From Patescibacteria group bacterium (GTDB lineage: Bacteria > Patescibacteriota > Patescibacteriia > Magasanikbacterales > GWA2-37-8), in contig SCQK01000007.1 in assembly GCA_004321885.1 (NCBI GenBank), forward strand, positions 96,001 through 160,000: DNA of 64,000 bases, given 5' to 3'. Under the pieces are notes generated by a model. It was not told the DNA's origin. It did no database searches and was given only the letters and a program-made list of their open reading frames with translations. How positions within the stretch are numbered: position 1 is the stretch's first letter; the number at the start of each line of letters is the position of its first letter. The position numbers and the translations under genes are program-made. This document shows positions 9,056-54,108 of this stretch, piece by piece.

Positions 9056-9084
9056 TTGACAATCAGGAACGATTGCCATACTAT
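9056..9084 (+). promoter_or_regulatory. Sigma70-like promoter (TTGACA-17-TACTAT)
   Basis: ttgaca at 9056-9061, a 17-nt spacer, tactat at 9079-9084; an AGGAGG Shine-Dalgarno at 9111-9116 follows, upstream of the small ORF at 9123. Confidence 0.5.
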
Positions 9085-9122
9085 ATTTGAAACTCAAGGC
9101 TCATTCCCCCAAGGAGGGATTA

Positions 9123-9287
9123 TATGAAAACTCTGTTGTGGGTGATAATGATGGGCGGGCCATTTCTGATTCTGTGTAAGGACAGGTGGCTCATCTTCGT
9201 TGGCGCCATGATTATCGGCGCCTGGATTGTCGGCATTCTGGGTGCGGGCGTGGCCAGCGGACGCTCGCCGCAAGACCCGGAATAGTC
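9123..9287 (+). CDS. Small hydrophobic membrane protein (54 aa)
   Basis: ATG preceded by aaggaggg; translation MKTLLWVIMMGGPFLILCKDRWLIFVGAMIIGAWIVGILGAGVASGRSPQDPE. It has its own promoter and terminator; not in the ORF track because it is under 60 aa. Confidence 0.45.
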
Positions 9288-9299
9288 TCTATCGTTCGT

Positions 9300-9330
9300 G
9301 CCTCGCGCCACCCCGCGAGGCGTTTTTTTT
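9300..9330 (+). terminator. Rho-independent terminator
   Basis: 8-bp GC stem gcctcgcg/cgcgaggc with loop ccaccc, followed by eight T. Confidence 0.6.
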
Positions 9331-9342
9331 AAATAAATATCC

Positions 9343-9368
9343 CTCCCCTTCTAGGGGAGGGATAGGGG
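9343..9368. repeat. Family D GGGGAGGG hairpin (ccctcccct-tcta-ggggaggg), probable terminator of groEL
   Basis: Perfect short palindrome immediately after the groEL stop on the minus strand; the family has more than 20 copies in the window. Confidence 0.7.
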
Positions 9369-9395: not shown

Positions 9396-11066
<1,671 letters not shown>

Positions 11067-18290: not shown

Positions 18291-18928
18291 TGTTCGTTTT
18301 CTTTGACAAAAATTTCTTTTTCCACGCCAAAAGATAGCTCTTCCAAGAACGCGCGGATTTTTTCCGGACGATGATAATATGATTCAATGAGCACTTCCAC
18401 CCCGCCGGTTTTCACGAGCGGCGGGTCTTTTTGGTTGATATTGGTCACCACAAAAATTCCGCCGTCTTTGAGCACGCGATAGACCTCGTCAAAAAACCGG
18501 CGCGGATCTTTTAGGTGCGCGATAAGAAAAGCGGCCAGCACGATGTCAAAGGTTTCGTTTGCAAACGGCAAATTTTCCGCGTCGCCCACCACTGTCGTAA
18601 TGTCATACTGAATTTGTTTCATTATCTCCGGTCGCAAAATTTTTCGCTTCAGCATCTCCAGCATCTTGGGCGAGATGTCCAAAGCGGTCACGCACGCTCC
18701 CCGCTTGGCCAAATACAAAGAGGCCCGCCCGGTGCCCGCGCCGACATCCAAAATTTTTTTGCCCGCCACCACACCAAAATTTTTAGTGTGGTGGCCGGAC
18801 ACGTCGCCGAGCATGGAAAATAATTTTCCCTGTTCAAAACTGTTCAGGTATTTTTCTTTTTCATCGTAATACTTGGCCGCCAAATTATATCCTTCGGCCG
18901 ATGACAGAACCTGTATTTTTTTGGTCAT
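18257..18928 (-). CDS. Class I SAM-dependent methyltransferase
   Basis: Motif I ILDVGAGTGRASLYLA, an acidic residue after beta2 (VTALDIS) and motif post-I FDIVLAAFL. Confidence 0.75.
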   Translation of the reverse strand: MTKKIQVLSSAEGYNLAAKYYDEKEKYLNSFEQGKLFSMLGDVSGHHTKNFGVVAGKKILDVGAGTGRASLYLAKRGACVTALDISPKMLEMLKRKILRPEIMKQIQYDITTVVGDAENLPFANETFDIVLAAFLIAHLKDPRRFFDEVYRVLKDGGIFVVTNINQKDPPLVKTGGVEVLIESYYHRPEKIRAFLEELSFGVEKEIFVKENEQWVNQILCARK

Positions 18929-20463
18929 AGATGTTTACCCCTCCCTAACCCTCCCCTTATAAAGGGGAGGGCAATAATAATATACAACAATATCGTCATC
19001 CACCAGCTGATTCGTATTTCCAGCGCGGCCCAGCCCTGTTTTCCAAACCATTCCACTAACATTATAACATACCCAAGTCCGACGCCAACAATCCAGGCCA
19101 CTATCTGTCCCAAAGGAAAAAATATGAAACCGAGCATGACCGCGGCGAATCCAAAAAGCATCAGCCACGGGATAATCCACAGCACCAGCAAATTCACGAG
19201 CGGCGCAACGATAGAGAGGCGGCCGAATTGAAACAGCATCAAAGGCAAAGTGGCGATGATGGCGGAAAGGGTTTGCACCAATGTTTGAAAGAAAAAATTA
19301 ATACTGTCATTGCGAGGAGCCGGAAGCGACGAAGCAATCCCAAGCGATAAATATACGAGTCCCAAAGTCGCTAAAAAAGACAGTTGAAACCCCGCGTCCC
19401 ACACCAGCACGTACGGATTAAAAAGCAACATCAGCGCCGCGGTCAGCGCCAGCACATTGCCCACGCGCGACAAGCGACCCATTTGTTGCGCCAGCAAAAC
19501 AATCACGCCCATTATTCCGGCGCGCACCACCGAAGCCGAGGCGCCGGTAAAGAGCACGAATAAAATTATGCCAACGACCACGGCCCAAAACGCGCGAGGG
19601 CGCGACAGCCCGGCCAGAATAAAAAAACTCATCAGCGCCAAGGCGATGATACTAATGTTGTATCCGGATATGGCGATAATATGAGTGATGCCCGAACGAT
19701 TAAAATCCTCCAGCAGCTCCGTCGGCAGGCCGCTACGCGCGCCGTAGAGCAGTCCGGCCATCAAACTGCTCTTCGGCTCTGGCCAAAGTTTGTCCACCTG
19801 ATTCGCGACAGCCGATTTAAGGCGTAACATGTCATTGCGAGCGACCGTAGGGAGCGCGGCAATCCCATTCTTTGCAAGGGATTGCTTCGTCGTTTCACTC
19901 CTCGCAATGACAGGATTCCCGCACACCGACCAAATCCCATAGCGCGCCAAATACTGGTCATAGCGAAATCCGTCCGGGCTCGCTTTTGGCTCTTGCAATA
20001 CACAAGACAAATTCAACTCCTCTCCATACTCATAGCGCGGATACAGTGGCAGCCAAAAAATAATTTTACCGGAAATATTTTTTGGACAAACAAACGACTG
20101 CCCCGCGCAACTTTTTACTTTCGCCACGTATTTCACGTTGCTTATCCCCGCTTCCGGCTCTTCGCTTACAGCCGCCGTCACTTCCATTTTCTCGCCGTTG
20201 TAATATTTGATACTGCTCGGCGTGATTTTCGGCACGCTGATTAAAAAACGCAAGCCGCCCAAAATAAAAAACAACGCGCAAAGCAGGGCGAAGCGCCAAA
20301 CTTTTTTCTGCCACAGCATTACGGCGAAAAAAAGCGCGGCAAACGCCGCGATAAACAAAGGAAACTGCCAATCACTATTTTCCTGAAGCGAAAACAAACT
20401 CACGCCGGCTATAAAACAAAAGCAAAACGCGAGAAACGTTTTGCTTTTAGAGTGCATTGTCAT
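18925..20463 (-). CDS. comEC: ComEC/Rec2 competence protein, N-terminal (DUF4131) plus polytopic competence-channel domain
   Basis: Competence-domain signature GLPTELLEDFNRSGITHIIAISGYNIS and multiple TM helices. I trimmed the start to MTMHSKSK (20463/20457) because the longer ORF (20697) overlaps leuS. Contains in-frame family B insertions (19300-19345 and 19833-19915). Confidence 0.75.
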   Translation of the reverse strand: MTMHSKSKTFLAFCFCFIAGVSLFSLQENSDWQFPLFIAAFAALFFAVMLWQKKVWRFALLCALFFILGGLRFLISVPKITPSSIKYYNGEKMEVTAAVSEEPEAGISNVKYVAKVKSCAGQSFVCPKNISGKIIFWLPLYPRYEYGEELNLSCVLQEPKASPDGFRYDQYLARYGIWSVCGNPVIARSETTKQSLAKNGIAALPTVARNDMLRLKSAVANQVDKLWPEPKSSLMAGLLYGARSGLPTELLEDFNRSGITHIIAISGYNISIIALALMSFFILAGLSRPRAFWAVVVGIILFVLFTGASASVVRAGIMGVIVLLAQQMGRLSRVGNVLALTAALMLLFNPYVLVWDAGFQLSFLATLGLVYLSLGIASSLPAPRNDSINFFFQTLVQTLSAIIATLPLMLFQFGRLSIVAPLVNLLVLWIIPWLMLFGFAAVMLGFIFFPLGQIVAWIVGVGLGYVIMLVEWFGKQGWAALEIRISWWMTILLYIIIALPFIRGGLGRGKHL

Positions 20464-20474
20464 TTTAAACACGC

Positions 20475-23012
20475 TCACACAACTATACTCACCAACTTTC
20501 CTTTCACGTAAATCACTTTCTTGGGTTGTTTGCCTTCCAGCCATCTCTGAATTTTTTCGCTGGCGAGCGCGCGGCTCTTCGCCTCTTCTTCGGAGATTCC
20601 CGCCACCACTTCCAAAGTGTCGCGCAACTTGCCATTCACCTGCACGGCCAGAGTGATTTCTTTTTCTTTGGCCAGCTCGGGGTCGTACTTCGGCCACGGT
20701 TCAAATGTGATGGATTTTTTATGTCCCAATAGCGACCACAACTCTTCGCACATGTGCGGAGCGAAGGGCGAAAGAATTTTTACGAATAATTCAAAATTCG
20801 CGATGGAAATTTTTGCCTGCTTTGAAAATTCATTACTCAATTCCATCATTTTCGCTATGGCCGTATTAAATCTCATCGCTTCAATATCTTCGGTGACTTT
20901 TTTGATTGTTTGGTGAAGTAGCTGCGTCATGCTGTCATTGCGAGGAGCCGAAGGCGACGTGGCAATCCCTTTCTTTGTTTGGGATTGCTTCGCTTCGCTC
21001 GCAATGACATTGAGCCCCCACACCCTCTCCAAAAACCTACGCACCCCTATCAATCCATTCGTATCCCACTCCACGGCCTGGTCAAACGGCCCCATGAACA
21101 TTATATACGTGCGCAAAGAATCCGCGCCGAATTTTTCCACCATTTCGTCCGGGTTTACCACGTTGCCTTTTGATTTACTCATTTTTTCTCCGCCTTTGGC
21201 TAAAATCATGCCGTGGCTGGTGCGTTTTTTGTACGGCTCACGCGTGGGCACAGCGCCGATGTCAAACAAAAACTGATTCCAAAAACGGGAATACAACAAA
21301 TGTAGAACCGTGTGCTCCATGCCGCCATTATACCAATCCACGCCGCCTTCGCCCGGCTTCGCGGGCTTCGGCGGGCAAAGCCAATATTTTAGCTTTTCCA
21401 TTGAGGCCAATTTCTTATCGTTTTTCGGGTCGCAGTAGCGCAAAAAATACCAACTGCTTCCGGCCCAATTCGGCATGGTGTCTGTTTCGCGCCGAGCCGG
21501 GCCGCCACATTTCGGGCATTTTGTTTTCACCCATTTTTCCATCGCGGCCAAGGGCGATTCGCCTGTGTCGGTCGGCTCATATTTTTTCACTTTCGGCAAT
21601 TCCAAAGGCAAATCTTCTTCCGCCAGCGGAATCCATCCTGGATTCAATCGCTCACCATCGTTTGGAAATTGGAAATTGGAAATTGGAAATTCCGCTTGTT
21701 TTTCGCACGCGGGACAAAAAACAAGCGGGATGGGTTCGCCCCAATAGCGCTGTCGCGAAAACACCCAATCGCGGAGTTTGTATTGCACTTTTTTCTCGCC
21801 AATCTTTTTTTCTTCCAGCCACTTCATTATTTTTTCCATCGGCTCGGGCACGATTTCCTTTATCGGCAAATTAAATTTCTTGGCAAACTCACTGTCGCGC
21901 TCGTCGTGCGCGGGCACGGCCATAATGGCGCCGGTGCCATAACCGGCCAAAACATAATCCGCTACCCACACCGGAATTTCCTTACCCGTGGCCGGGTTAA
22001 TCGCTTTGATACCCTTCAATTCCACGCCTGTTTTCTCTTTTTGAAGCTCTGTCCTCTCTAAATCCGATTTTTTCTTAGCTGATTCAACATATTTTTTTAC
22101 TTCGTCTATATTTGGAAATTGGAAATTGGAAATTGGAAATTTGAGGAGCGAAGCGACGAGTTCATGTTCGGGCGCGACAACCATGTACGTGGCGCCGAAG
22201 AGAGTGTCGGGGCGAGTGGTGAAGACCTCAAGCACACTGTCATTGCGAGGAGCCGAAGGCGACGTGGCAATCCCTTTCTTTGTTTGGGATTGCTTCACTT
22301 CGTTCGCAATGACAAATTTAATCATCGCGCCTTCGCTTCTGCCAATCCAATTTTCCTGCTGGACTTTTGCGCGTTCAATATAATCCACCTCTTTCAAGCC
22401 CTCCAGTAATTTATCCGCGTACTTGGTAATCGCCAGCATCCATTGCTCCTTATTGCGCCGCTCCACCGGCGTACCACAGCGCTCGCACTTGCCGTCCACC
22501 ACTTCCTCGTTGGCTAAGCCGATTTTACACGACGGGCACCAGTTTATGGGCATGGCTTTTTTGTAAGCCAAACCGTGCTTGAAAAGCTGTAAAAAAATCC
22601 ACTGGGTCCATTTGTAATATTTCGGGTCCGTGGTATCCACCTGCCGCGACCAATCAAAACTTAAACCGAGCGATTTTAGCTGGCGCGTGAAATTGGAGAT
22701 GTTTTTTTTCGTCACCTCGGCCGGGGGTTTGCCGGTCTTGATAGCAAAATTTTCCGTCGGCAGGCCGAAAGCGTCAAATCCAATAGGATACAAAACATTG
22801 TAGCCCTCCATGCGGCGCTTGCGCGAAATAATATCCATGGCCGTGTAGGCGCGCGGATGTCCCACGTGCAAACCCTCGCCGCTCGGATACGGAAACTCAA
22901 TCAAAGAATAAAACTTCTTTTTTTTCTTATCTTCTTTAACCTCAAAAGTCCCGTTCTCTTCCCAAAACTTCTGCCACTTTTTTTCAATTTTTTTCGGGTC
23001 GTATTTTGGCAT
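20475..23012 (-). CDS. leuS: Leucyl-tRNA synthetase, with four in-frame repeat insertions
   Basis: HVGH (HIGH-type) motif near the N-terminus, KMSKS, and editing domain. Two family B insertions (both translated ...[20 protein letters not shown]...) and two GGAAATT microsatellite insertions (FPISNFQFP). Confidence 0.9.
20934..21008. repeat. Family B element inserted in frame in leuS
   Basis: gtcattgcgaggagccgaaggcgacgtggcaatccctttctttgtttgggattgcttcgcttcgctcgcaatgac; an identical copy at 22239-22313 lies also inside leuS. Confidence 0.85.
22114..22141. repeat. Family C GGAAATT heptamer microsatellite (4 copies) inside leuS
   Basis: ggaaatt x4; other arrays at 21663-21683, 36368-36398, 58432-58460, 60418-60452, 60885-60915 and intergenic 17300-17345. 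Confidence 0.85.
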
Positions 23013-23013
23013 A

Positions 23014-23790
23014 TTATTTAAACAACTCCAATAATTTTTTATGCAAAACCGGATTGGCGACTATAATATCACACTCGCCTCTCTTCCACTCCTCTCCAAA
23101 ACTGTTTGTCCATTTGGCTCCGGCTTCGGTGGCGATAACATACGGCGCCAAAAAATCATGATAAAAACCGGCGTTGGTCACGACCGCGTCTATGCGGCCC
23201 GCGGCCAAATGGCACATGGTTAAAATTGTCCCCATATTATGTAGCCAGCACCCGGTGTCGCCGTTTATATTATTCCAAAAACGCACATAATCCTTAAATC
23301 TTTTTTGCCCGTTTCCGCAACCCACCGCGCCCTGGCTGAAAATCAAAAAACAATGCTCCACCTTATCGTAATTTCCAACTTTAATCCGCTCCCCGTTCAA
23401 GTACGCCCCCTCGCCTTTTTGCGCCCAAAACAATTCATCATTCATGGCATCGTAAATCGCGCTCAAGTATGGCGTTCCATTTTTTGTCAGGCCGACCATC
23501 ACGCACCACATCGCCACATGGTTGGCGAAGTTACGTGTGCCGTCTATTGGGTCTATCACCCAGGTATGCTCGGCCCCCGGATTTATTTCCTCTTTTCGTT
23601 CTTCGGAAATTATTCCGTGGTCCGGATATTTTTCCAAGATTTTTTCTATCAAAAATTTCTCCACTTCCGTGTCCGCTTCGGTAATTACGTCCGACGGATT
23701 TGATTTGACGCCGCTTTTGACCCCTTTCAAATAATATCCCTTGGCCAAATACCCGGCTTCTTTAATGGTGGATTTTACAAATTCAAGCAT
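23014..23790 (-). CDS. Inositol monophosphatase family protein (SuhB/CysQ-like)
   Basis: IMPase motifs [12 protein letters not shown] and the metal-binding region; 258 aa. Confidence 0.8.
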
Positions 23791-23895
23791 ACTTTATACC
23801 CCACCCTGTGTCCCTCCCCTAAAAGGGGAGGGGAATGTTTGCGTGCCTACATTTTATCGCAAACAGGGCTAAAAATCAAATTACGCCCGGATAAA

Positions 23896-23924
23896 TTGAC
23901 CTAACTGCCCAGTTCGTTTATACT
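23896..23924 (+). promoter_or_regulatory. Strong sigma70-like promoter (TTGACC-17-TATACT) of an orphan ~250-nt transcription unit
   Basis: ttgacc at 23896-23901, a 17-nt spacer, tatact at 23919-23924. Confidence 0.55.
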
Positions 23925-24000
23925 ATTGCTAAGCGTGGTGTGCTGTCTGTCGCTTATCAGCGGCTGAAAGCCCCACACAACACTCCAACGAGGAGGAACA

Positions 24001-24057
24001 ATGAAAGTCGGCAACAGAGCAGGCCCGGCCCAGAGCCGAGCCAACAACACGCGCTGA
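24001..24057 (+). CDS. Putative 18-aa small ORF (MKVGNRAGPAQSRANNTR) with a strong Shine-Dalgarno
   Basis: gaggagg sits 5 nt upstream of the ATG; it lies between the promoter at 23896 and the terminator at 24152. Coding status is uncertain and the transcript may instead be an sRNA. Confidence 0.3.
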   Translation: MKVGNRAGPAQSRANNTR

Positions 24058-24151
24058 TCGCAGAAGCCAACCGCCTCTTCGGGGCAGGAGGTGAAAATGC
24101 ACTGGCCGTGACAAACACGGACGGCGTAGGCACTGTGACGGAGCAGGACCA

Positions 24152-24182
24152 GGGGGCGGTCTCGACGACGCCCCTTTTTTTA
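24152..24182 (+). terminator. Rho-independent terminator
   Basis: Stem ggggcg/cgcccc with a 10-nt loop (gtctcgacga), followed by seven T. Confidence 0.6.
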
Positions 24183-24190
24183 ATCTCAGC

Positions 24191-24316
24191 TAAATTAAAA
24201 CGGAGGGTATATATAATTTTTGTAGCGGCCATCGCACCCCCGCGGGGCAGCGGTCGCCGCAGGCGACCCTGTTTGGCCGCAAAAAAATTATATATACCCT
24301 CCGTTGTTTTAATTTA
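24191..24316. repeat. Long perfect AT-rich palindrome (about 33-bp arms) enclosing a conserved 57-nt GC-rich structured core, copy 1 (downstream of trxA)
   Basis: Arms taaattaaaacggagggtatatataatttttg / caaaaaaattatatataccctccgttgttttaattta; core gcggccatcgcacccccgcggggcagcggtcgccgcaggcgaccctgtttggccgc. The right arm overlaps the trxA stop codon. Confidence 0.8.
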
Positions 24317-24634
24317 CGCGTACTTCTCCAGCATCTCTTTCAACTTCTCTTTCTGCACCCCGCCCGTCAGCTGGTCCACTATCTGGCCGTCCTTGAAAAC
24401 CATAAACGAAGGGATACTCAACACACTATACTGCGCGGCCGTGTCGCCGTTCTCGTCCACATTCATCTTGCCGATTTTAATGTTCTTGCCCTCAAATTCC
24501 TTGGCCAATTCTTCCACTATCGGCCCCATCATCTGGCACGGCCCGCACCACGGCGCCCAAAAATCCACAAACACCGGCTGTTTGGATTGCAAAACCTCCT
24601 CGTTAAAATTTTTGTCGGTAAACACGTTGTCCAT
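24314..24634 (-). CDS. trxA: Thioredoxin
   Basis: 106 aa with the WCGPC active site (FWAPWCGPCQMMGP). Confidence 0.9.
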   Translation of the reverse strand: MDNVFTDKNFNEEVLQSKQPVFVDFWAPWCGPCQMMGPIVEELAKEFEGKNIKIGKMNVDENGDTAAQYSVLSIPSFMVFKDGQIVDQLTGGVQKEKLKEMLEKYA

Positions 24635-24698
24635 ATTTATTTTTTTCTGGATTCCCCCGTACTTAGTCGGGGGAATGACAGCTTGTGTTTAATTATTA

Positions 24699-24803
24699 GC
24701 AAAGTTTTGTGATTTTTTTCGCAGCGGCCATCGCACCCCCAAGGGGCAGTGGTCGCCGCAGGCGACCCTGTTTGGCCGCAAAAAAAAATTCACAAAACTT
24801 TGC
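24699..24803. repeat. Copy 2 of the conserved 57-nt core in a different perfect palindrome (about 22-bp arms), upstream of trxA
   Basis: Arms gcaaagttttgtgatttttttc / gaaaaaaaaattcacaaaactttgc; core gcagcggccatcgcacccccaaggggcagtggtcgccgcaggcgaccctgtttggccgc, in the same orientation as copy 1. Confidence 0.8.
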
Positions 24804-24805
24804 CT

Positions 24806-26824
24806 TTAACTTAACACCAACTTTTTCTCCTTTTCCTCTTCCTTGTAACACTCCAGCACATCATCTATCTCCAATTTTAATTTACCCTCAAACTGCGCCC
24901 CGCACTCGCTACCCTCGGGCACTTCGTTCAAAATCTGCTTGGCCACCTGCAACTGCGACAACTTACCCAAGCCGATAATCTCTTCCCCGCGCTTTACTCG
25001 CGCTTTACAGCCCTTCTGCAGTTTGCCCTGTTCCACGCGGCCGCCGACTATCATATTGCCCTTGCCGGTGCGGAAAATCGCCACCACCTTGAACACCCCG
25101 AGTTCAGTAGTAATTTTTTCCGGACTCAACAACTTGCCCATTTCTTCTTTGACGAAATCCAGCAGGTCGTAAATTATTTTGTACTCATTATACACTAATT
25201 TTTTATCGCGCGCCATTTCTTGCGCCACCGGGTTGATGGTAACATTAAAAGCAAAAAGCATGGCGCCGGCGGCTTCGGCCTTGGCCACGTCATCTACCGT
25301 CACATTGCCCAGGCCCTTGCCCACCACGCGCACGCCCACCTCGTCATTTTTAATTTTTCCCAGCGAACCGATAATCGCTTCCAGCGAGCCGAGCGTATCG
25401 CCCTTCACCACCACGTTCAAAACCTTCTTTTGCTCGTCGCTTTCAGCCGCGCCCAGGGCAAAAGTTTCTTTTTCCGCGCCCATCTGCTTATTTTTTTTCT
25501 CTTTTATGTCAATGGCCTTGGCCCCGGCGGCCGCGGCCACGTCCAAAATATCCCCCACGGCCGGCGCCACCTTAAATCCCAGAATGCGCGCCGGACAGCT
25601 GGGCGGGGCCGTCAGCAAATTTTCTCCTTTGTGATTTTTCATGGCCCGCACCTTGCCGTAAATCTCGCCGTTTATCACCAGCGGGTCGTTCACGCGCAAA
25701 GTGCCGGTCTGCACCAAAATCGTGGCCACCGGGCCTTCGCCCTTGTCCACGTGCGCCTCAATGACCGTGCCCGCGGCCGAGCGGTCCGGATTGGCTTTAA
25801 TGCTGTCGGCATGCACGTCGGCCACTAAAAGCAACACATCAAGTAGCTTATCTATGTGCAAATTCTGTTTGGCGGAAATTTCCACCATGGGCGTGTCCCC
25901 GCCCCACTCCTCGCCTATCACTCCGTTTTGCGACAAATCAACGCGCACCTTTTGCGGGTCAGCTCCCTCTTTGTCAATTTTATTGAGCGCCACCACGGTC
26001 GGAATTTTGGCGGCCTTGATAATGTTTATCGCTTCCAAGGTTTGGGGCTTGACGCTGTCGTCGGCCGCCACCACCAGAATGGCGATGTCAGCCACCTTGG
26101 TGCCGCGGCTGCGCATCACCGTAAAGGCCTCGTGCCCGGGAGTGTCTATAAATGTCAGGGGGGATTTTTCTTTGGTTTTGGGATTGGTCCAAATCACCTG
26201 ATAAGCGCCGATGTGCTGGGTAATGCCACCAGCCTCGGATTCCATGACATTGGTGCGTCGAATAGCGTCTAACAATTTTGTTTTACCGTGGTCAACGTGC
26301 CCCATCACCACGATAACGGGCGGGCGGCGCGTGGTAGCGTCCGCGGCCAAAATTGATTCCAAATTATTTTCGTGCGCCGAGACTGCTTCGGTTTTTTGCT
26401 CGGGTTCGCGCACGGTAAAACCGAATTCCTGCGCCATCAGCACGGCCGTGTCATGGTCCAGGCGCTCGTTTTGCGCAGCCAAAATTCCGTTTTTCATGAG
26501 TTCAACGATAAGGCCGGTAACCGGCATCTGCAAAATATCGGCGAATTGGCGCACGGTCAGCTGGTTTGGTATGGCCACGCTGGCGCCGCTCGTCTGGCGC
26601 GCCTCTTTTTCCAGCTCTTTTTGTTTTTCTTTTTCCTTGCGCTCGCGCTCTTCCAGCACGAACTTTATCCGTTTCCAGGCGCGCTGAATCTGCTGGGCCA
26701 CGCGGTCATCCACTTTCACGGCCCGAGCGCCGATATCAAAACCAAACTCTGGCAAAATTTGCAAAAGTTTTTGGGGGTGGACTCGGAGTTGTCTGGCCAG
26801 TTCGCTTACGTTCATAAAGCTCAA
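24806..26824 (-). CDS. infB: Translation initiation factor IF-2
   Basis: GTPase domain (GHVDHGKTKLLD, DTPGHEAF, NKIDK), then IF-2 domains II-IV; 672 aa. Confidence 0.9.
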   Translation of the reverse strand: MSFMNVSELARQLRVHPQKLLQILPEFGFDIGARAVKVDDRVAQQIQRAWKRIKFVLEERERKEKEKQKELEKEARQTSGASVAIPNQLTVRQFADILQMPVTGLIVELMKNGILAAQNERLDHDTAVLMAQEFGFTVREPEQKTEAVSAHENNLESILAADATTRRPPVIVVMGHVDHGKTKLLDAIRRTNVMESEAGGITQHIGAYQVIWTNPKTKEKSPLTFIDTPGHEAFTVMRSRGTKVADIAILVVAADDSVKPQTLEAINIIKAAKIPTVVALNKIDKEGADPQKVRVDLSQNGVIGEEWGGDTPMVEISAKQNLHIDKLLDVLLLVADVHADSIKANPDRSAAGTVIEAHVDKGEGPVATILVQTGTLRVNDPLVINGEIYGKVRAMKNHKGENLLTAPPSCPARILGFKVAPAVGDILDVAAAAGAKAIDIKEKKNKQMGAEKETFALGAAESDEQKKVLNVVVKGDTLGSLEAIIGSLGKIKNDEVGVRVVGKGLGNVTVDDVAKAEAAGAMLFAFNVTINPVAQEMARDKKLVYNEYKIIYDLLDFVKEEMGKLLSPEKITTELGVFKVVAIFRTGKGNMIVGGRVEQGKLQKGCKARVKRGEEIIGLGKLSQLQVAKQILNEVPEGSECGAQFEGKLKLEIDDVLECYKEEEKEKKLVLS

Positions 26825-26826
26825 CT

Positions 26827-27240
26827 ACCCTCTCCTGTTAGGGGAGGGATAAAGGGATGGGGTATCCACTCAATATCCCTAAAATCTTACTCTCTTACAC
26901 TGAATTAGTCAAATACGGGAATATCGCTGGCTCCATAGTGCCCGACTTAGTCGGGGCTGTGGAGCCGTAATGCACTCTGGCTCCACGCACAGCATGGAGC
27001 CAGCGACATTTGACACGCGCCCGATTTTGTGATAAAGTGATTTCACAATTAAAATAATAATTCTGGATTCCCCCGACTTAGTCGGGGGAATGACAGATGA
27101 GATTTTTGAGGGAATTTTTTAAGAGGAAACTCGTATGGCTCGTGCGGCTGAAACTGCCAAAAATACGCTAACGAAAACACTTTCAAGCGCTATCCGTGTG
27201 TGGGTTCCCCCGTACTTAGTCGGGGGAATGACAAACGAAT
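26827..27240. repeat. Intergenic repeat hotspot with a family D hairpin, a family E element and two family A copies
   Basis: 26827-26862 (D), 26925-27010 (E: ggctccatagtgcccgacttagtcggggctgtggagcc...), 27063-27098 (A), 27203-27238 (A); a 500-bp spacer between infB and rny. Confidence 0.8.
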
Positions 27241-27332
27241 CGGCCATCACTTCGGCTTTGTTTGCGTTCGTAAAATAAACAAGGCCTCTCTTCTTAAAAT
27301 TTTCGCCCGCAAAAATCGCGGAAATTTTTTGT

Positions 27333-28862
27333 ATGACTAAAGAACTGCTCTGGGCGGTTATAACCGCTCTAATTACCGGCGCCGGCATCGCGCTCGGCTA
27401 TTTTTTGCGCAAAAAAATCGCCCAGGCCCAGGCCAATTCCATAGAAGCCAAGGCGGAAAAAATTCTGACCGAGGCCAAAACTAAACAACAAGAATTTATC
27501 CTGCAGGCCAAGGAAAAAGCCGAACATATCATAGACGAAGCCAAGCGCGAAGAAAAACAACTCCGCGCCGAATTGCACAACCTGCAACAGCGGCTGGAGC
27601 GGCGCGAAAGCATGTTTGACCAAAAACTTTTGGAATTTCAGGACAAACAGCAAAAGTTGCAGGAAAAGGTGGAGCGCGTCCAGCAGATAAAGCAAGAATT
27701 GGAACGAGCGCGCGAACAGGAAATGGTGAAATTACAGGAGCTGGCCGGCCTGACGCGCGATGAAGCCAAAACCGAATTGCTGAACCGCGTGGAACAGCAA
27801 AGCAAAGACGACCTGATGTTGCGCATAATGAAGCTGGAAAAAGAAAACAACGACGCCTTCCAGGAAAAAGCCAGGGATATAATCACCGAGGCCATTCAAC
27901 GTTGCGCGTCTTCGCACGCGGCCGACATCACTTCCACGACAGTAGCGCTGCCGAGCGAAGACATGAAAGGCCGAATCATCGGCAAGGAAGGCCGCAACAT
28001 CAAGACCATAGAAAAACTGACCGGTTGCGAACTGGTAATAGACGACAGCCCGGACACGATTATGGTTTCGGGCTTCTCGCCCATCCGCCGGCAAATCGCC
28101 AAGCTGGCGCTGGAAAAGCTGATGGCCGACGGCCGCATCCAGCCGGCGCGCATTGAAGAATTTATAGAAAAAGCCAAGCAGGATTTGGCTTTGGACATAA
28201 AAAAGGCGGGCGAAGAGGCCCTGTATAAAATGGGCATCACCGGCATTGACCCCAAACTGGTCGGCATCGTGGGACGGCTGAAATACCGTACCAGCTACGG
28301 CCAAAACATCCTAAACCATTCTATGGAAGTAGGCTACTTGTCGGGCCTTATCGCCAGCGAGCTGGGGCTGGACGCGGCCAAAGCCAAAAAGTGCGGCTTT
28401 TTCCATGACATCGGCAAGTCCGTGGACCAGGAAACCCAGGGCACTCACCCGGAAATCGGCGGGGTTATTCTGAAGAAATTCAACATGGACGAGGACCTGG
28501 TGCAGGCCGCGCAAACCCACCACAACGACAAACCATACAATATCTATTCTTCCATCGTCAAAGCCGCCGATGCCATTTCCGGCGCGCGCGTCGGGGCGCG
28601 CAAAGACAGCTACGAAGCCTTTGTGGCGCGCCTGGAAGAGCTGGAAAAAACCGCCGCGGCTTTTCCGGGCATTGAAAAAGTCTACGCCATTCAGGCCGGA
28701 CGCGAGGTGCGCGTGTTTGTGAAGCCCAATGAAATAGACGACTACTCGGCTTTTCAGCTGGCCAAAGACATTGCCCGCAAGATTGAGCAGGACTTGCAGT
28801 ACCCGGGCGAAATCCGCGTCAGCATTATCCGCGAAACCCGCGTGGTGGAATACGCCAGATAA
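27333..28862 (+). CDS. rny: Ribonuclease Y
   Basis: N-terminal TM anchor, coiled coil, KH domain (IIGKEGRNIKTIEKLTG) and HD domain (HSMEV...FFHDIGK...THH); 509 aa. Confidence 0.85.
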   Translation: MTKELLWAVITALITGAGIALGYFLRKKIAQAQANSIEAKAEKILTEAKTKQQEFILQAKEKAEHIIDEAKREEKQLRAELHNLQQRLERRESMFDQKLLEFQDKQQKLQEKVERVQQIKQELERAREQEMVKLQELAGLTRDEAKTELLNRVEQQSKDDLMLRIMKLEKENNDAFQEKARDIITEAIQRCASSHAADITSTTVALPSEDMKGRIIGKEGRNIKTIEKLTGCELVIDDSPDTIMVSGFSPIRRQIAKLALEKLMADGRIQPARIEEFIEKAKQDLALDIKKAGEEALYKMGITGIDPKLVGIVGRLKYRTSYGQNILNHSMEVGYLSGLIASELGLDAAKAKKCGFFHDIGKSVDQETQGTHPEIGGVILKKFNMDEDLVQAAQTHHNDKPYNIYSSIVKAADAISGARVGARKDSYEAFVARLEELEKTAAAFPGIEKVYAIQAGREVRVFVKPNEIDDYSAFQLAKDIARKIEQDLQYPGEIRVSIIRETRVVEYAR

Positions 28863-29456: not shown

Positions 29457-30149
29457 ATGCGCAAGCTAAAAAAACAGCAGGCTATTTTGTTACGGCGACA
29501 AGGAAAAAGCTACAACGAAATAAGGAAGATCCTCGATCTCCCCTCAAAAGGAACACTGAGCGTCTGGTTCAAAGATATGGCGCTGTCGCCGGAAGCCAAA
29601 AAGAGATTGGCACGCAATGTAAATCTGGCGCGCAAACGAGGACTGTTTCGTTTCAATCGAGAACGCACCAAACTTTGTCAGGCCGAAAACAAACGCTTGA
29701 GGAAAGAAGCTCAAAAAGTCATCAGGAAACTTACCCCGCGAGAACTCTTGCTAACTTGTGTGGCCCTTTATTGGGGTGAGGGGTATAAAAGTCACAATCA
29801 GCCGAAATTAAGCCTGACCAATACCGAACCTGAACTCATTGCTTTGTTCATGCGTTTTATCCGCGAAATCCTACGAATTCCGGACGAACGCATTCGCACG
29901 CATATTCATATCCATCCCAACGTTAATATCCAGAGGGCAATAAAATTTTGGTCGCAAGTGACCCGATTGCCAATGGAAAATTTTCGCGTAATAATGGCGG
30001 CAAGTCGTGCTAGCCTAGGTAAACGTCCTGTTAATTCTCTGCCTTACGGAACACTTGATGTTCGTGTGCATGCCAGACAAACTTTTTTTACCATGATGGG
30101 CTATATTGATTCGCTCAAAAAAGAAAGTAAAATTAGCAAAATCCATTAA
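29457..30149 (+). CDS. HTH-domain protein with a possible LAGLIDADG-like endonuclease domain (tentative)
   Basis: N-terminal helix-turn-helix (ILLRRQGKSYNEIRKILDL); the central VALYWGEGYKS...ELIALFMRFIREIL loosely resembles a LAGLIDADG helix/beta region. Lower GC than its neighbours and adjacent to tRNA-Glu. Confidence 0.35.
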   Translation: MRKLKKQQAILLRRQGKSYNEIRKILDLPSKGTLSVWFKDMALSPEAKKRLARNVNLARKRGLFRFNRERTKLCQAENKRLRKEAQKVIRKLTPRELLLTCVALYWGEGYKSHNQPKLSLTNTEPELIALFMRFIREILRIPDERIRTHIHIHPNVNIQRAIKFWSQVTRLPMENFRVIMAASRASLGKRPVNSLPYGTLDVRVHARQTFFTMMGYIDSLKKESKISKIH

Positions 30150-30295
30150 TCGTTTCTGCTATCTATCAGGCATTGGTTGCTCTAGGGAATCGAACGCCGG
30201 AGCGATGTCGCGCGAGCTTGCGGGCGAGCGCGACCGCGAGGCGGTGGCCAGCCCGAGCGAGCGGAAGCGAGCGAGAGGCGAGGCCGATTCCCGTT

Positions 30296-30330
30296 GGGGC
30301 TACGAAAAAATCCCCCCGATTAAATCGGAG
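30296..30330. terminator. Bidirectional intrinsic terminator-like hairpin (A-run / stem / T-run)
   Basis: aaaaaatccccccgattaaatcggagggattttttt between convergent genes. Confidence 0.5.
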
Positions 30331-30351
30331 GGATTTTTTTGCCAGAAATTA

Positions 30352-31332
30352 TTATTGGCAGTTGGCTTTGACCGTCAAACTGTTATCTTCTTTTGTGGTT
30401 TCTTTTATAAAATCGTCTTTTGCCACTTGCACCCCCACATCCGCCCCACAAACCGCTTTCTTCCAGGTAAACTCAAACTCCTGCTTTTGACCAGGCCCCA
30501 GGGCCATAAAAATATAATACCATGTGCTCACATAGCCATTGACATACATGGTCGCGCCCGGTCCTTTTTTAGTGTTAAAATTTAACCCGCCCACGGCGTA
30601 AGCCGCTCCTTCGTTTGTCACGGTCGCGATTACTTTAACTTTTTGGCCTTCGCTAAATTGACTCGGTTCAAACCTGATATCGGTTAAAACCAAATTAGGC
30701 AATAATTCAATTTTGGAGAAATCAACCAAACCGCTTATCAACCTCGCGTACCAAGGCCGCTTCACCGTCGTTATGGCGTTGGTATCGGCCGCGATATCCA
30801 CCCGGCTTTTCACCTTGAAAGGAATAAAACCAAATAGCTTGCCTTCTTCTTCCACCCTGGCTCTATAAATCGGTTTATTATTTTCCACTTTCAATTCCAG
30901 GCCTTTGAGCGCGCCGCCCGGCAACCCCTTCTTTTCCACCACCTTATTTAAACTTTTGTAGACAACGGCCGGCTCCATTTTTAAGGTATAAGTGGCGCTG
31001 TTGATTTCACCGCTCAAAATCAAACTGCCGTTCTTCACGGCTACATCTGTTTCCGCTTCTATGTTTTTCAACTCGGCGCTTTTTAGCTGGTTATCAGACG
31101 GCGTTGGGGACGGCGGCGGATCAGGGTCGCCAAGTTCCGTTAGCAAGGCGGGGTTTGACCGCGCCGCGCCGGGCAATGGCGGCTCCGGCTGAGGATTGAG
31201 CTGATTTCCTTCCACCGGTGCCACGGTCTTGGCCGGCGTTACGGACCGAACCGGAGTGAGATAAACCGCGCTGGCGGCTGACGTCGCGCCAAAAAGCAAT
31301 CCCGCGACAATTAGAACTTGTATTTTATGCAT
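30352..31332 (-). CDS. Secreted protein with Pro-rich linker and C-terminal CARDB-like domain
   Basis: Signal peptide MHKIQVLIVAGLLFGATSAASA; C-terminal KVKVIATVTNEGAAYAVGG, typical of CARDB/Ig-like adhesion domains. Confidence 0.55.
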   Translation of the reverse strand: MHKIQVLIVAGLLFGATSAASAVYLTPVRSVTPAKTVAPVEGNQLNPQPEPPLPGAARSNPALLTELGDPDPPPSPTPSDNQLKSAELKNIEAETDVAVKNGSLILSGEINSATYTLKMEPAVVYKSLNKVVEKKGLPGGALKGLELKVENNKPIYRARVEEEGKLFGFIPFKVKSRVDIAADTNAITTVKRPWYARLISGLVDFSKIELLPNLVLTDIRFEPSQFSEGQKVKVIATVTNEGAAYAVGGLNFNTKKGPGATMYVNGYVSTWYYIFMALGPGQKQEFEFTWKKAVCGADVGVQVAKDDFIKETTKEDNSLTVKANCQ

Positions 31333-48393: not shown

Positions 48394-48436
48394 TTTCCCT
48401 CCCCTTTATAAGGGGAGGGATAGGGAGGGGTAAATT

Positions 48437-48943: not shown

Positions 48944-49045
48944 TAAGAGGAGAGCGAGAGAGGGGTATCGCGGTTTCCCCTCCCCTTTTTAAGGGGAGGG
49001 TGAGGGATGAGTAATCGTCAATTCCCCCGCCCCTTTATAAGGGGC
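48935..49045. repeat. Three tandem family D GGGGAGGG hairpins
   Basis: cctctccccttgataagaggagag, cccctcccctttttaaggggaggg and cccccgcccctttataaggggcgggcggggg variants. Confidence 0.8.
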
Positions 49046-50121: not shown

Positions 50122-51516
50122 TTATAAAGGGGAGAGAAACGACGACACTTCTTTTGTCTTATCGGTCATCAGCGACTCTGAACGCGCTTCCAAGTTGAGG
50201 CGCATTTTGTTTTCGGTGTTTGACGCGCGCACGTTAAACCACCAGTCCGGCCATTCAAAAGACAGCCCGTCAAAGTCATATTTCAAATTCGCGCCATACT
50301 TTTCCCGCAAAGCAACGAACACCGCCTGCTTGTCTTCCACCGCGAAATTGATTTCACCCGAATGAAAATACTTATACAAAGGCGCGCAATACTCGCTTAT
50401 CGTCTTCCCGCTCTCGGACAGCTCCTGCAAAATCTTCAAGAGCATTATCTCCGGCGCCTCAAAAGTGCCGTGCGGCATTTTCAAGAAAAAATGCCCGGAT
50501 GATTCGCCGGCGAACACAGCTCCGGTCTCGGCCATCTTTTCTTTTATCAGCGAATGCCCCACTTTGGTCACCATTGGTTTGCCGCCGGCCTCCACGATCA
50601 TGTCCTCGGTGATTTTGCCAGGCCGAACATCGTAGCAAATTGTCGCGCCCGGATACTCGCGCAAAAATATCTGCGCCAAAATGCCACGCACTATGGCCGG
50701 CTCTATTGTCTTGCCTTTTTCGTCAACAAAAAATACTCGGTCCGCGTCGCCATCAAGAGCCACGCCCAAATCAGCGCCGGTTTCAACAACTTTTTCTTGA
50801 AGCGCGCGGTTGTTTACATCTTTCAAAGGATCGGCCTCGTGATTTGGAAAATTACCGTCCAGTTCAAAATACAAAGGCACTAACTCGCACGGTAAATGTT
50901 TGAATAATTCTTCCATCAAAGGTCCGCCCATACCGTTGGCCGAATCAACCACCACTTTGAGTGGATTAATTTTCTTCACGTCCGCCTGGGTGAGAGCGAA
51001 GGCGATGTGATCCGCGATGACGTTTTCTTTTTTTGACAATACCCCCTTCTCACCTCCCCCTTGTAAAGGGGGAGGGATTGCGCCACCCGCGATCATATCG
51101 CGGATTTCCATTATTCCGGTATCTCCACTTATCGGACCGGCCGCGGCGCGCACCATCTTAAACCCGTTATACTTCGCCGGATTGTGTGAGGCCGATACTT
51201 GCAAGCCGCCGTCATAGCCGTAATGGGCCACGGAAAAATAAAAAGTCGGCGTGGAAACCAAACCAACGTCAATCACGTTCACGCCTTGCTCCAAAATTCC
51301 TTTGATAACCGCGTTTGCCAAAACCGGAGAAGAAGCGCGCATGTCGCGGCCCACAACGACTGTTACCCCTCCCTCACCCTCCCCTTGTAAAGGGGAGGGA
51401 GTGCGCCTGATAAACTCCGCGAACGCCCGCCCCACCTTAAAAGCCAAACCCTCGTTTAATTCATCCGGATACACCCCCCTGATGTCATAGGCCTTAAAAA
51501 TTTGTGCTGGAAACAT
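50122..51516 (-). CDS. Phosphoglucomutase/phosphomannomutase (alpha-D-phosphohexomutase family) with two in-frame GGGGAGGG hairpin insertions
   Basis: Active-site SASHNPAKYNGFK, metal-binding GDADRVFFVDEKG and sugar-binding GESSGH. Hairpins at 51050-51078 and 51378-51400 are translated as PPLQGGGEKG and SPLQGEGEGG. Confidence 0.85.
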   Translation of the reverse strand: MFPAQIFKAYDIRGVYPDELNEGLAFKVGRAFAEFIRRTPSPLQGEGEGGVTVVVGRDMRASSPVLANAVIKGILEQGVNVIDVGLVSTPTFYFSVAHYGYDGGLQVSASHNPAKYNGFKMVRAAAGPISGDTGIMEIRDMIAGGAIPPPLQGGGEKGVLSKKENVIADHIAFALTQADVKKINPLKVVVDSANGMGGPLMEELFKHLPCELVPLYFELDGNFPNHEADPLKDVNNRALQEKVVETGADLGVALDGDADRVFFVDEKGKTIEPAIVRGILAQIFLREYPGATICYDVRPGKITEDMIVEAGGKPMVTKVGHSLIKEKMAETGAVFAGESSGHFFLKMPHGTFEAPEIMLLKILQELSESGKTISEYCAPLYKYFHSGEINFAVEDKQAVFVALREKYGANLKYDFDGLSFEWPDWWFNVRASNTENKMRLNLEARSESLMTDKTKEVSSFLSPL

Positions 51517-54022: not shown

Positions 54023-54108
54023 ACCGCGCGAACCCCCTCCCCTATTAGGGGAGGGGGAACCCAATTACTCCTCCCCCTTTTAGGGGGAGGATAAAGGAGG
54101 GGGTATTT

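Follow-up and report, generated by a model that had tools for sequence, protein, structure and literature searches.

The 523-bp gap between trxA and a gene of the inositol-monophosphatase family (IMPase) was analysed in a 64-kb stretch of DNA from an uncultured Patescibacteria bacterium of the candidate phyla radiation (CPR), placed near Candidatus Magasanikbacteria by the organisms in which its homologues occur. The whole stretch is called the window, and all coordinates are window positions. The window has a G+C content of 49% and is about 90% coding, and the gap is among its larger ones. On the plus strand of the gap lies a unit that consists of a promoter, two tiny open reading frames (ORFs) and an intrinsic terminator. 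This unit may well be a stand-alone, lineage-restricted small RNA (sRNA) gene, a reading that we put forward tentatively. The minus strand carries every gene from 4938 to 26824, with the exception of a small plus-strand gene at 9124-9285. The features at the locus are listed here, with SD denoting a Shine-Dalgarno sequence.

20475-23012, minus strand: LeuRS gene
23014-23790, minus strand: IMPase gene
23812-23832, unstranded: CCCTCCCC-N5-GGGGAGGG hairpin in the IMPase 5' leader, one of seven copies in the window
23851-23879, minus strand: divergent promoter-like site of IMPase, TTGATT-17-TAAAAT, 9/12 match
23896-23924, plus strand: sigma-70-type promoter TTGACC-17-TATACT, -35 at 23896-23901, 17-nt spacer, -10 at 23919-23924
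23931-24181, plus strand: predicted primary transcript of about 250 nt, placed by the promoter and terminator positions
24001-24057, plus strand: 18-codon ORF MKVGNRAGPAQSRANNTR with stop TGA; SD GAGGAGG at 23990-23996, spacing 4 nt to ATG 24001
24097-24111, plus strand: 4-codon ORF MHWP* (ATGCACTGGCCGTGA); SD-like AGGAGGTGA at 24086-24094, spacing 5 nt
24152-24181, plus strand: intrinsic terminator, GC hairpin GGGGCGGTCTCGACGACGCCCC at 24153-24174 and T7 at 24175-24181
24199-24305, unstranded: 107-bp palindromic element with perfect 23-bp arms, between the terminator of the unit and the trxA stop
24314-24634, minus strand: trxA
24806-26824, minus strand: infB

The recognisable parts, namely the IMPase promoter with its leader, the unit and the palindromic element, fill the entire gap in this 90% coding window. 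The IMPase promoter and the plus-strand promoter of the unit stand back-to-back with 16 bp between them. Beyond the terminator, the palindromic element is followed by trxA and infB in antisense orientation, and the first plus-strand gene downstream of the unit begins at 27333. An earlier note on this DNA had described the promoter, the 18-codon ORF with its SD gaggagg, a second SD followed by a 4-codon ORF, and a terminator made of a GC hairpin and T7. All of these are present in the sequence. The note had also placed the unit between the IMPase gene and an element flanking trxA, and this was borne out by the palindromic element that adjoins trxA.

The promoter matches the sigma-70 consensus at 10 of 12 positions with a spacer of the optimal 17 nt, and transcription is predicted to start near A23931. 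Promoter-like sites with a match of at least 10/12 were counted over the window. There were 32 such sites compared with 7.8 +/- 2.4 in first-order Markov simulations, an excess of about 4-fold. Fifteen of the 32 sites are intergenic, in the 10% of the window that lies between genes, and most of these are located just upstream of genes in the correct orientation; intergenic DNA is thereby enriched about 8-fold over genic DNA. Thus the sigma-70 consensus is informative in this host, because promoter-like sites are enriched and concentrated in intergenic DNA upstream of genes. In shuffles of the 523-bp gap, at least one site of at least 10/12 on either strand was obtained with P = 0.047. The unit carries its own correctly oriented promoter, as judged from the sequence and as expected of an sRNA gene.

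The terminator hairpin had a stability of -12.2 kcal/mol in a dedicated scan for hairpins with a T-run and of -15.0 kcal/mol (z -2.9) by folding. A standard terminator scan overlooked the hairpin at 24153-24174 owing to its stem and loop counting. On the minus strand, the sequence after the hairpin is CUGGUCC and not a U-run. Because the minus strand has no U-tail, the hairpin should be a plus-strand-specific terminator, and a strand-specific Rho-independent terminator is what the 3' end of an sRNA gene calls for. Compact GC hairpins with a run of at least seven T are found in intergenic DNA at three places only in the 64 kb, at 9323(+), at 24175(+) and, in bidirectional form, at 30310/30334. 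The location of a plus-strand terminator amid a minus-strand gene array implies a plus-strand transcript. The bidirectional terminator, TCCCCCCGATTAAATCGGAGGGA with A- and T-run flanks, occupies 30288-30340 between the convergent genes 29457-30149(+) and 30352-31332(-).

A second lone plus-strand unit within the minus-strand gene array, at 9056-9330(+), served as an internal control. It has the following parts.

within 9056-9330, plus strand: promoter TTGACA-17-TACTAT
9124-9285, plus strand: 53-aa hydrophobic ORF MKTLLWVIMMGGPFLILCKDRWLIFVGAMIIGAWIVGILGAGVASGRSPQDPE; SD AAGGAGGG, spacing 6 nt
T-run at 9323, plus strand: terminator GCCTCGCG-CCACCC-CGCGAGGC followed by T8

From its sequence, the product of 9124-9285 is likely a small membrane protein. 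The two units share the lone plus-strand placement, a promoter of the form TTGAC(A/C)-17-TA...T, an SD of the GGAGG type and a compact GC hairpin followed by T7-8. Since the control unit has these promoter and terminator signals, the host uses them for small plus-strand units. The units differ in that the control encodes a plausible 53-aa membrane protein with 6-nt SD spacing, a leader of about 30 nt and a terminator 14 nt past the stop, whereas the unit at the IMPase-trxA gap has an 18-codon hydrophilic ORF, 4-nt SD spacing and long structured flanks. Based on the signal statistics and on the use of the same signals by the control unit, a discrete plus-strand transcript of about 250 nt, separate from and divergent to the IMPase gene, is likely. 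The self-contained transcription unit proposed by the earlier note thus stands, while its list of possible products was narrowed and not brought down to one.

Folding of the predicted transcript gave a minimum free energy (MFE) of -95.1 kcal/mol with a z of -1.45 for the plus strand and -0.05 for the minus strand. The following elements were predicted on the plus strand.

23933-23978, plus strand: 5' terminal stem-loop with the apical part GUCGCU-UAUC-AGCGGC, -20.5 kcal/mol, z -3.3
23983-23995, plus strand: small predicted hairpin CUCC-AACGA-GGAG, which pairs part of the first SD GAGGAGG (23990-23996)
24022-24042, plus strand: hairpin within the 18-codon ORF in the MFE fold
24051-24145, plus strand: predicted Y-shaped domain (three-way junction), -39.9 kcal/mol, z -3.0, 40% of the ensemble
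24072-24093, plus strand: 8-bp hairpin within the Y-shaped domain, in which the anti-SD-like CGCCUCUU (24072-24079) pairs with the second SD-like AGGAGGUG (24086-24093) in the MFE fold

The 5' stem-loop is equally stable on the minus strand and gives no information on the strand. The Y-shaped domain is asymmetric, with -39.9 kcal/mol on the plus strand versus -27.7 kcal/mol and a z of +0.2 on the minus strand. The domain reaches into the 18-codon ORF at its base, which overlaps the stop codon. Within the domain the second SD is predicted to be fully sequestered by the anti-SD-like tract, and AUG 24097 to be partly paired. The background of this genome is rich in palindromic, strongly folding repeats. 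The modelled folding weakly favours the plus strand and does not prove a structured RNA.

Coding potential was analysed for the tiny ORFs and for all longer frames. The 4-codon ORF shares the reading frame of the 18-codon ORF, and the frame from ATG 24001 is interrupted by TGA, TGA and TAG ahead of the terminator. An alternative genetic code was rejected, as TGA terminates 14 of the 46 window genes. The code is standard and the in-frame TGA codons are therefore real stops. Where window genes have a motif containing GGAGG, the spacing from SD to ATG is 6-11 nt, compared with 4 and 5 nt for the two ORFs of the unit; the initiation geometry typical of genes in this genome is not found here. The majority of window genes have no canonical SD, and GGAGG itself is frequent, with 39 and 58 copies per strand. 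The 18-codon ORF contains the rare codons GCA, CGA, AGA and GTC. Its peptide would be hydrophilic and of low complexity, without signal or membrane character. A structured leader of about 70 nt and a structured untranslated trailer of 95 nt, which reaches up to the terminator, flank this 57-nt ORF. The short SD spacings, the predicted pairing of both SDs, the rare codons, the hydrophilic low-complexity peptide and the long flanks together weakly favour an RNA product over a translated 18-aa peptide.

The earlier note had called the 18-codon ORF the only one of the transcript. This holds for ORFs with an ATG and an SD, but both strands also have longer mechanical ORFs across the region: a plus-strand ORF from GTG (23940-24692, 250 aa) that runs antisense through trxA, and minus-strand ORFs of 91, 61 and 49 aa. 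These overlapping ORFs have no SD and no homologue. Pfam gave no match to five frame translations of the region. The open plus-strand frame had 0 matches in a phmmer search of 1.84 billion representatives, and the 91-aa minus-strand ORF had 0 matches in a protein search. A hidden protein gene was rejected, as the five frame translations had no Pfam match and the two longest frames no match in the phmmer and word-indexed protein searches.

Known RNA families were searched as well. At the gathering score, Rfam 15 found two tRNAs in the whole window and no family match to the unit, which was the outcome of the Rfam/Infernal scan that the earlier note had proposed. When the region 23780-24330 was searched at E<=10, only sub-threshold alignments to isrD (RF01388) and Xoo2 (RF02241) appeared, which are terminator-like noise. 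The isrD alignment scored 19.5 bits (gathering score 37, E-value 0.24) and the Xoo2 alignment 12.8 bits (gathering score 45, E-value 8.1), and they share with the region only the generic shape of a GC hairpin and a U-run. Both were rejected as below threshold; the isrD match moreover falls in the neighbouring palindromic element, outside the unit. ARAGORN detected no tRNA or tmRNA in the region. Three further candidates were rejected by eye: RNase P, suggested by GAAAGUC and GGUGAAA-like strings, because the P4 3' strand is absent; the signal recognition particle (SRP) RNA, as there is no GNRA-capped domain IV; and 6S RNA, as the 5' and 3' ends are unpaired.

In its architecture the unit resembles independently transcribed sRNAs, including the dual-function RNAs SgrS/SgrT, RNAIII/hld and SR1/SR1P. 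It shares with them the size class of about 250 nt, an own sigma-70-type promoter and an intrinsic 3' terminator, and also the intergenic site divergent from a neighbouring gene, modular stem-loops and a short SD-led ORF in a mostly untranslated RNA. Unlike sRNAs of the SgrS/SgrT type, it has no Rfam match, no conservation outside one organism and no identifiable seed or target, and its host is a CPR bacterium.

If the unit is an sRNA gene, RNA polymerase would start at about 23931 from the sigma-70-type promoter that lies back-to-back with the IMPase promoter. Transcription would then run along the plus strand for about 250 nt, against the direction of all neighbouring genes, and stop at the intrinsic terminator 24152-24181. 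The RNA would consist of the 5' hairpin, a short CA-rich linker, the Y-shaped domain and the terminator hairpin, in this order, and both SD-like purine tracts would be paired with CU-rich anti-SD-like tracts. Such an RNA would most likely be regulatory and mainly non-coding, its tiny ORFs being incidental or at most weakly translated.

For comparison with relatives, 12 loci (in the range L003-L013, L085, L086) were obtained via IMPase and TrxA homologues. The nearest sampled homologues among 5.8 billion protein clusters are 69% (IMPase) and 80% (TrxA) identical. At this distance, the conservation or covariation that marks an sRNA gene was not found. An identical gap, with 100% identity over its full length, is present in one other run, SRR8426592, which stems from the same organism and is uninformative for conservation. 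A scan of genome contigs with IMPase returned only an unrelated archaeon, and within the window the unit had no match to a paralogue or repeat family. As far as visible from these sequences, the element appears to be unique to the host organism.

Several results weigh against an sRNA gene. The nearest relative, L003, has the same gene order infB-trxA-IMPase-leuS with a gap of 201 bp that lacks the element. The earlier note had taken absence of the region from close relatives as an argument against the unit; formally this is the case in L003, which at 69% IMPase identity is too distant to refute it. No homologue of the unit was found by nhmmer, blastn or tblastx over the 12 loci of relatives, and a covariance model of the Y-shaped domain had no match in 144 kb of these loci. 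Searches with blastn against plasmids and phages gave no match. In metagenome scans a 21-mer had 0 matches and a 17-mer 71, all of them seed-only chance matches, and three viral pattern scans gave 0, 0 and 4 chance matches. A scan for target duplexes over the 46 translation-initiation regions of the window had a best value of -47.6 kcal/mol, within the null of shuffled sRNAs (-43.6 to -52.8). As to the folding, the transcript-wide z of just -1.45 is unremarkable, the z of the Y-shaped domain (about -2.4 to -3) is equalled by 9.5% of arbitrary 97-nt genome windows, and the borders of this domain and of the modules were picked once the fold was known.

The content of the trxA-IMPase junction differs among the relatives. 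The L003 junction holds no gene, and its gap has an unrelated palindromic element. The junction contains gdh in L005, L009 and L010 and two unknown ORFs in L011. In L007 it has DUF4349 and gdh together with a gene of 258 aa on the opposite strand. In L085 and L086 IMPase is absent altogether. As its content differs among relatives, the junction is a hot spot of gain and loss. The whole trxA-leuS segment is a variable cassette site in the lineage, with IMPase present or absent.

This variability is the background of the main rival explanation, a decayed remnant. The unit would then derive from a former small plus-strand gene, or from the promoter and leader of a lost gene, and would persist at the unstable junction as functionless DNA that is possibly still transcribed. 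We regard this as unlikely, if by some way the most serious of the alternatives. It would account for the broken frame behind ATG 24001, for a second SD and ATG that lead into 4 codons only, for the absence of the element from every other genome sampled and for a layout of promoter, SD, ATG and terminator like that of the intact unit 9056-9330. However, no residual similarity to junction genes of the relatives was detected. A remnant of gdh, DUF4349 or the unknown ORFs was rejected, as these proteins, searched with tblastn against 23791-24313, had no match beyond noise (every E-value above 0.07, in a very small search space). The open plus-strand frame and the 91-aa minus-strand ORF likewise have no protein homologue. 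Moreover, both promoter and terminator have stayed close to consensus, and DNA that had long been decaying in a 90% coding genome would not be expected to keep such signals. The arrangement could also be a coincidence, in which a promoter-like pair and a hairpin with a T-run lie 230 nt apart by chance, no discrete transcript is made, and the GC-rich filler is spacer or repeat debris. Promoter-like sites without an obvious gene do occur at other places of the window, such as 54738-54711(-) and 9148-9119(-), strongly folding repeats are abundant, hairpins are common and conservation was not found. Yet a 10/12 promoter with a 17-nt spacer and the correct orientation would hardly be expected to lie by accident 230 nt ahead of one of the three clean intergenic terminators, the promoter alone having P <= about 0.05, and the region matches no repeat family of the window, so that we consider chance a poor explanation. 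Slightly poorer still is a small-protein mRNA or dual-function RNA with a functional peptide translated from the 18-codon and perhaps the 4-codon ORF, an option of the earlier note that is now weakly disfavoured. GAGGAGG and AGGAGGTGA do each precede an ATG, and the genome has at least one small-protein unit that runs from promoter to terminator (9056-9330). On the other side stand SD spacings outside the range of the window genes, most of which have no canonical SD at all, the commonness of GGAGG, the predicted pairing of both SDs, the several rare codons and the character of the peptide. The leader of about 70 nt and the trailer of 95 nt around a 57-nt ORF also contrast with the control, where the terminator follows 14 nt after the stop.

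A translation-coupled attenuator that gates plus-strand read-through, and so yields antisense RNA to trxA-infB, is the least probable of the readings and hardly to be expected. A ribosome on the leader ORF or the second SD would free the anti-SD tract ACCGCCUC (24070-24077), which would then pair with the 5' arm of the terminator, GGGGCGGU (24153-24160). This 8-bp alternative pairing exists, the Y-shaped domain includes the leader-ORF stop codon in its base, and the layout of leader ORF, sequestered second SD and terminator looks, from general knowledge, like that of attenuators of the erm/cat and trp types. With erm/cat leader-peptide attenuators the unit shares a short SD-led leader ORF followed by a second SD and AUG that are sequestered by an anti-SD-like tract. 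Unlike in these systems, the second AUG opens a 4-codon ORF, no resistance gene or other gene follows, and the RNA ends in a terminator. Thus there is no regulated downstream gene on the same strand, as an attenuator would have, the next gene starting at 27333. The alternative fold lies 12.5 kcal/mol above the MFE fold, so the two are not of comparable stability, and no counterpart was found in the relatives. Any read-through would at once meet the 107-bp palindromic element with its U-rich flanks, which would itself halt it. As no plus-strand gene precedes 27333, a leader peptide or riboregulator of a downstream gene, which the earlier note had also listed, is disfavoured, and so is riboswitch-type control of such a gene; an sRNA remains the best reading of its list, though no homologue was found in the loci of the relatives.

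A more specific form of the sRNA gene would be a riboregulator particular to the CPR, in which two perfect SD mimics are held by anti-SD mimics. Such an RNA might draw away 30S subunits or anti-SD-like sequences as a switchable decoy, or it might gate antisense transcription into trxA-infB through coupling to translation. We consider this idea very improbable. Its setting would be a genome in which most genes have no canonical SD and show, directly ahead of the start codon, repeated hairpin elements instead. A full-text literature search found no paper on regulatory sRNAs in Patescibacteria (CPR), and if transcribed and functional, the unit would be among the first candidate regulatory sRNAs of this group. 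It is an orphan of a single genome, and its value is that the candidate of about 250 nt is clearly delimited, with unusually clean predicted ends, and can be looked for in metatranscriptomes.

Two hairpin families recur in this window, with several or many copies in front of genes. The hairpin found in the IMPase leader, CCCTCCCC-N5-7-GGGGAGGG, occurs in seven copies, mostly intergenic, versus 0 expected by chance. The copies lie at the following positions.

9341-9361
18949-18971
23812-23832
48397-48419
48978-49000
51377-51399
54035-54055

Several of these hairpins are followed by GGGAGGGGTAA or GGGTGGGGTA a few nt before a start codon, for example at IMPase and at the genes starting at 18928(-), 48437 and 54109. 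By its position and sequence the repeat looks like a supplier of the ribosome-binding region. The second family, TCCCCCG-(ACTTAGT)-CGGGGGA, has nine copies, often followed by ATGACA, which are located at the following positions.

5777
11038
11382
16561
24653
27069
27206
36516
58836

Many of them lie immediately upstream of start codons, as at trxA and the genes starting at 11021, 11366 and 16560.

Palindromic elements bracket trxA, at 24199-24305 and 24680-24822. They have a common GC-rich core of 71 nt (24217-24287 and 24716-24786) that is 93% identical between them, and the window holds no more copies. The perfect 23-bp arms of the 24199-24305 element are AT-rich. Unrelated palindromes occupy the same place after trxA in the relatives L003 and L085. 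Repeats were also observed inside the LeuRS ORF (20475-23012, minus strand). It contains, in frame, two palindromic copies of 78 nt (20932-21009 and 22237-22314, 97% identical) and two translated (GGAAATT)n heptamer arrays (21661-21691 and 22111-22141), which from the sequence appear to be insertions tolerated within an essential gene. Between infB and the RNase Y gene lies a gap of 508 bp (26825-27332), which had no Rfam match in the scan of the whole window. It harbours two TCCCCCG...CGGGGGA elements in inverted arrangement, the windows that fold most strongly in the background scan (z -6 to -7 for either strand) and a promoter-like site, TTGACA-17-TAAAGT, at 27010-27038(+).

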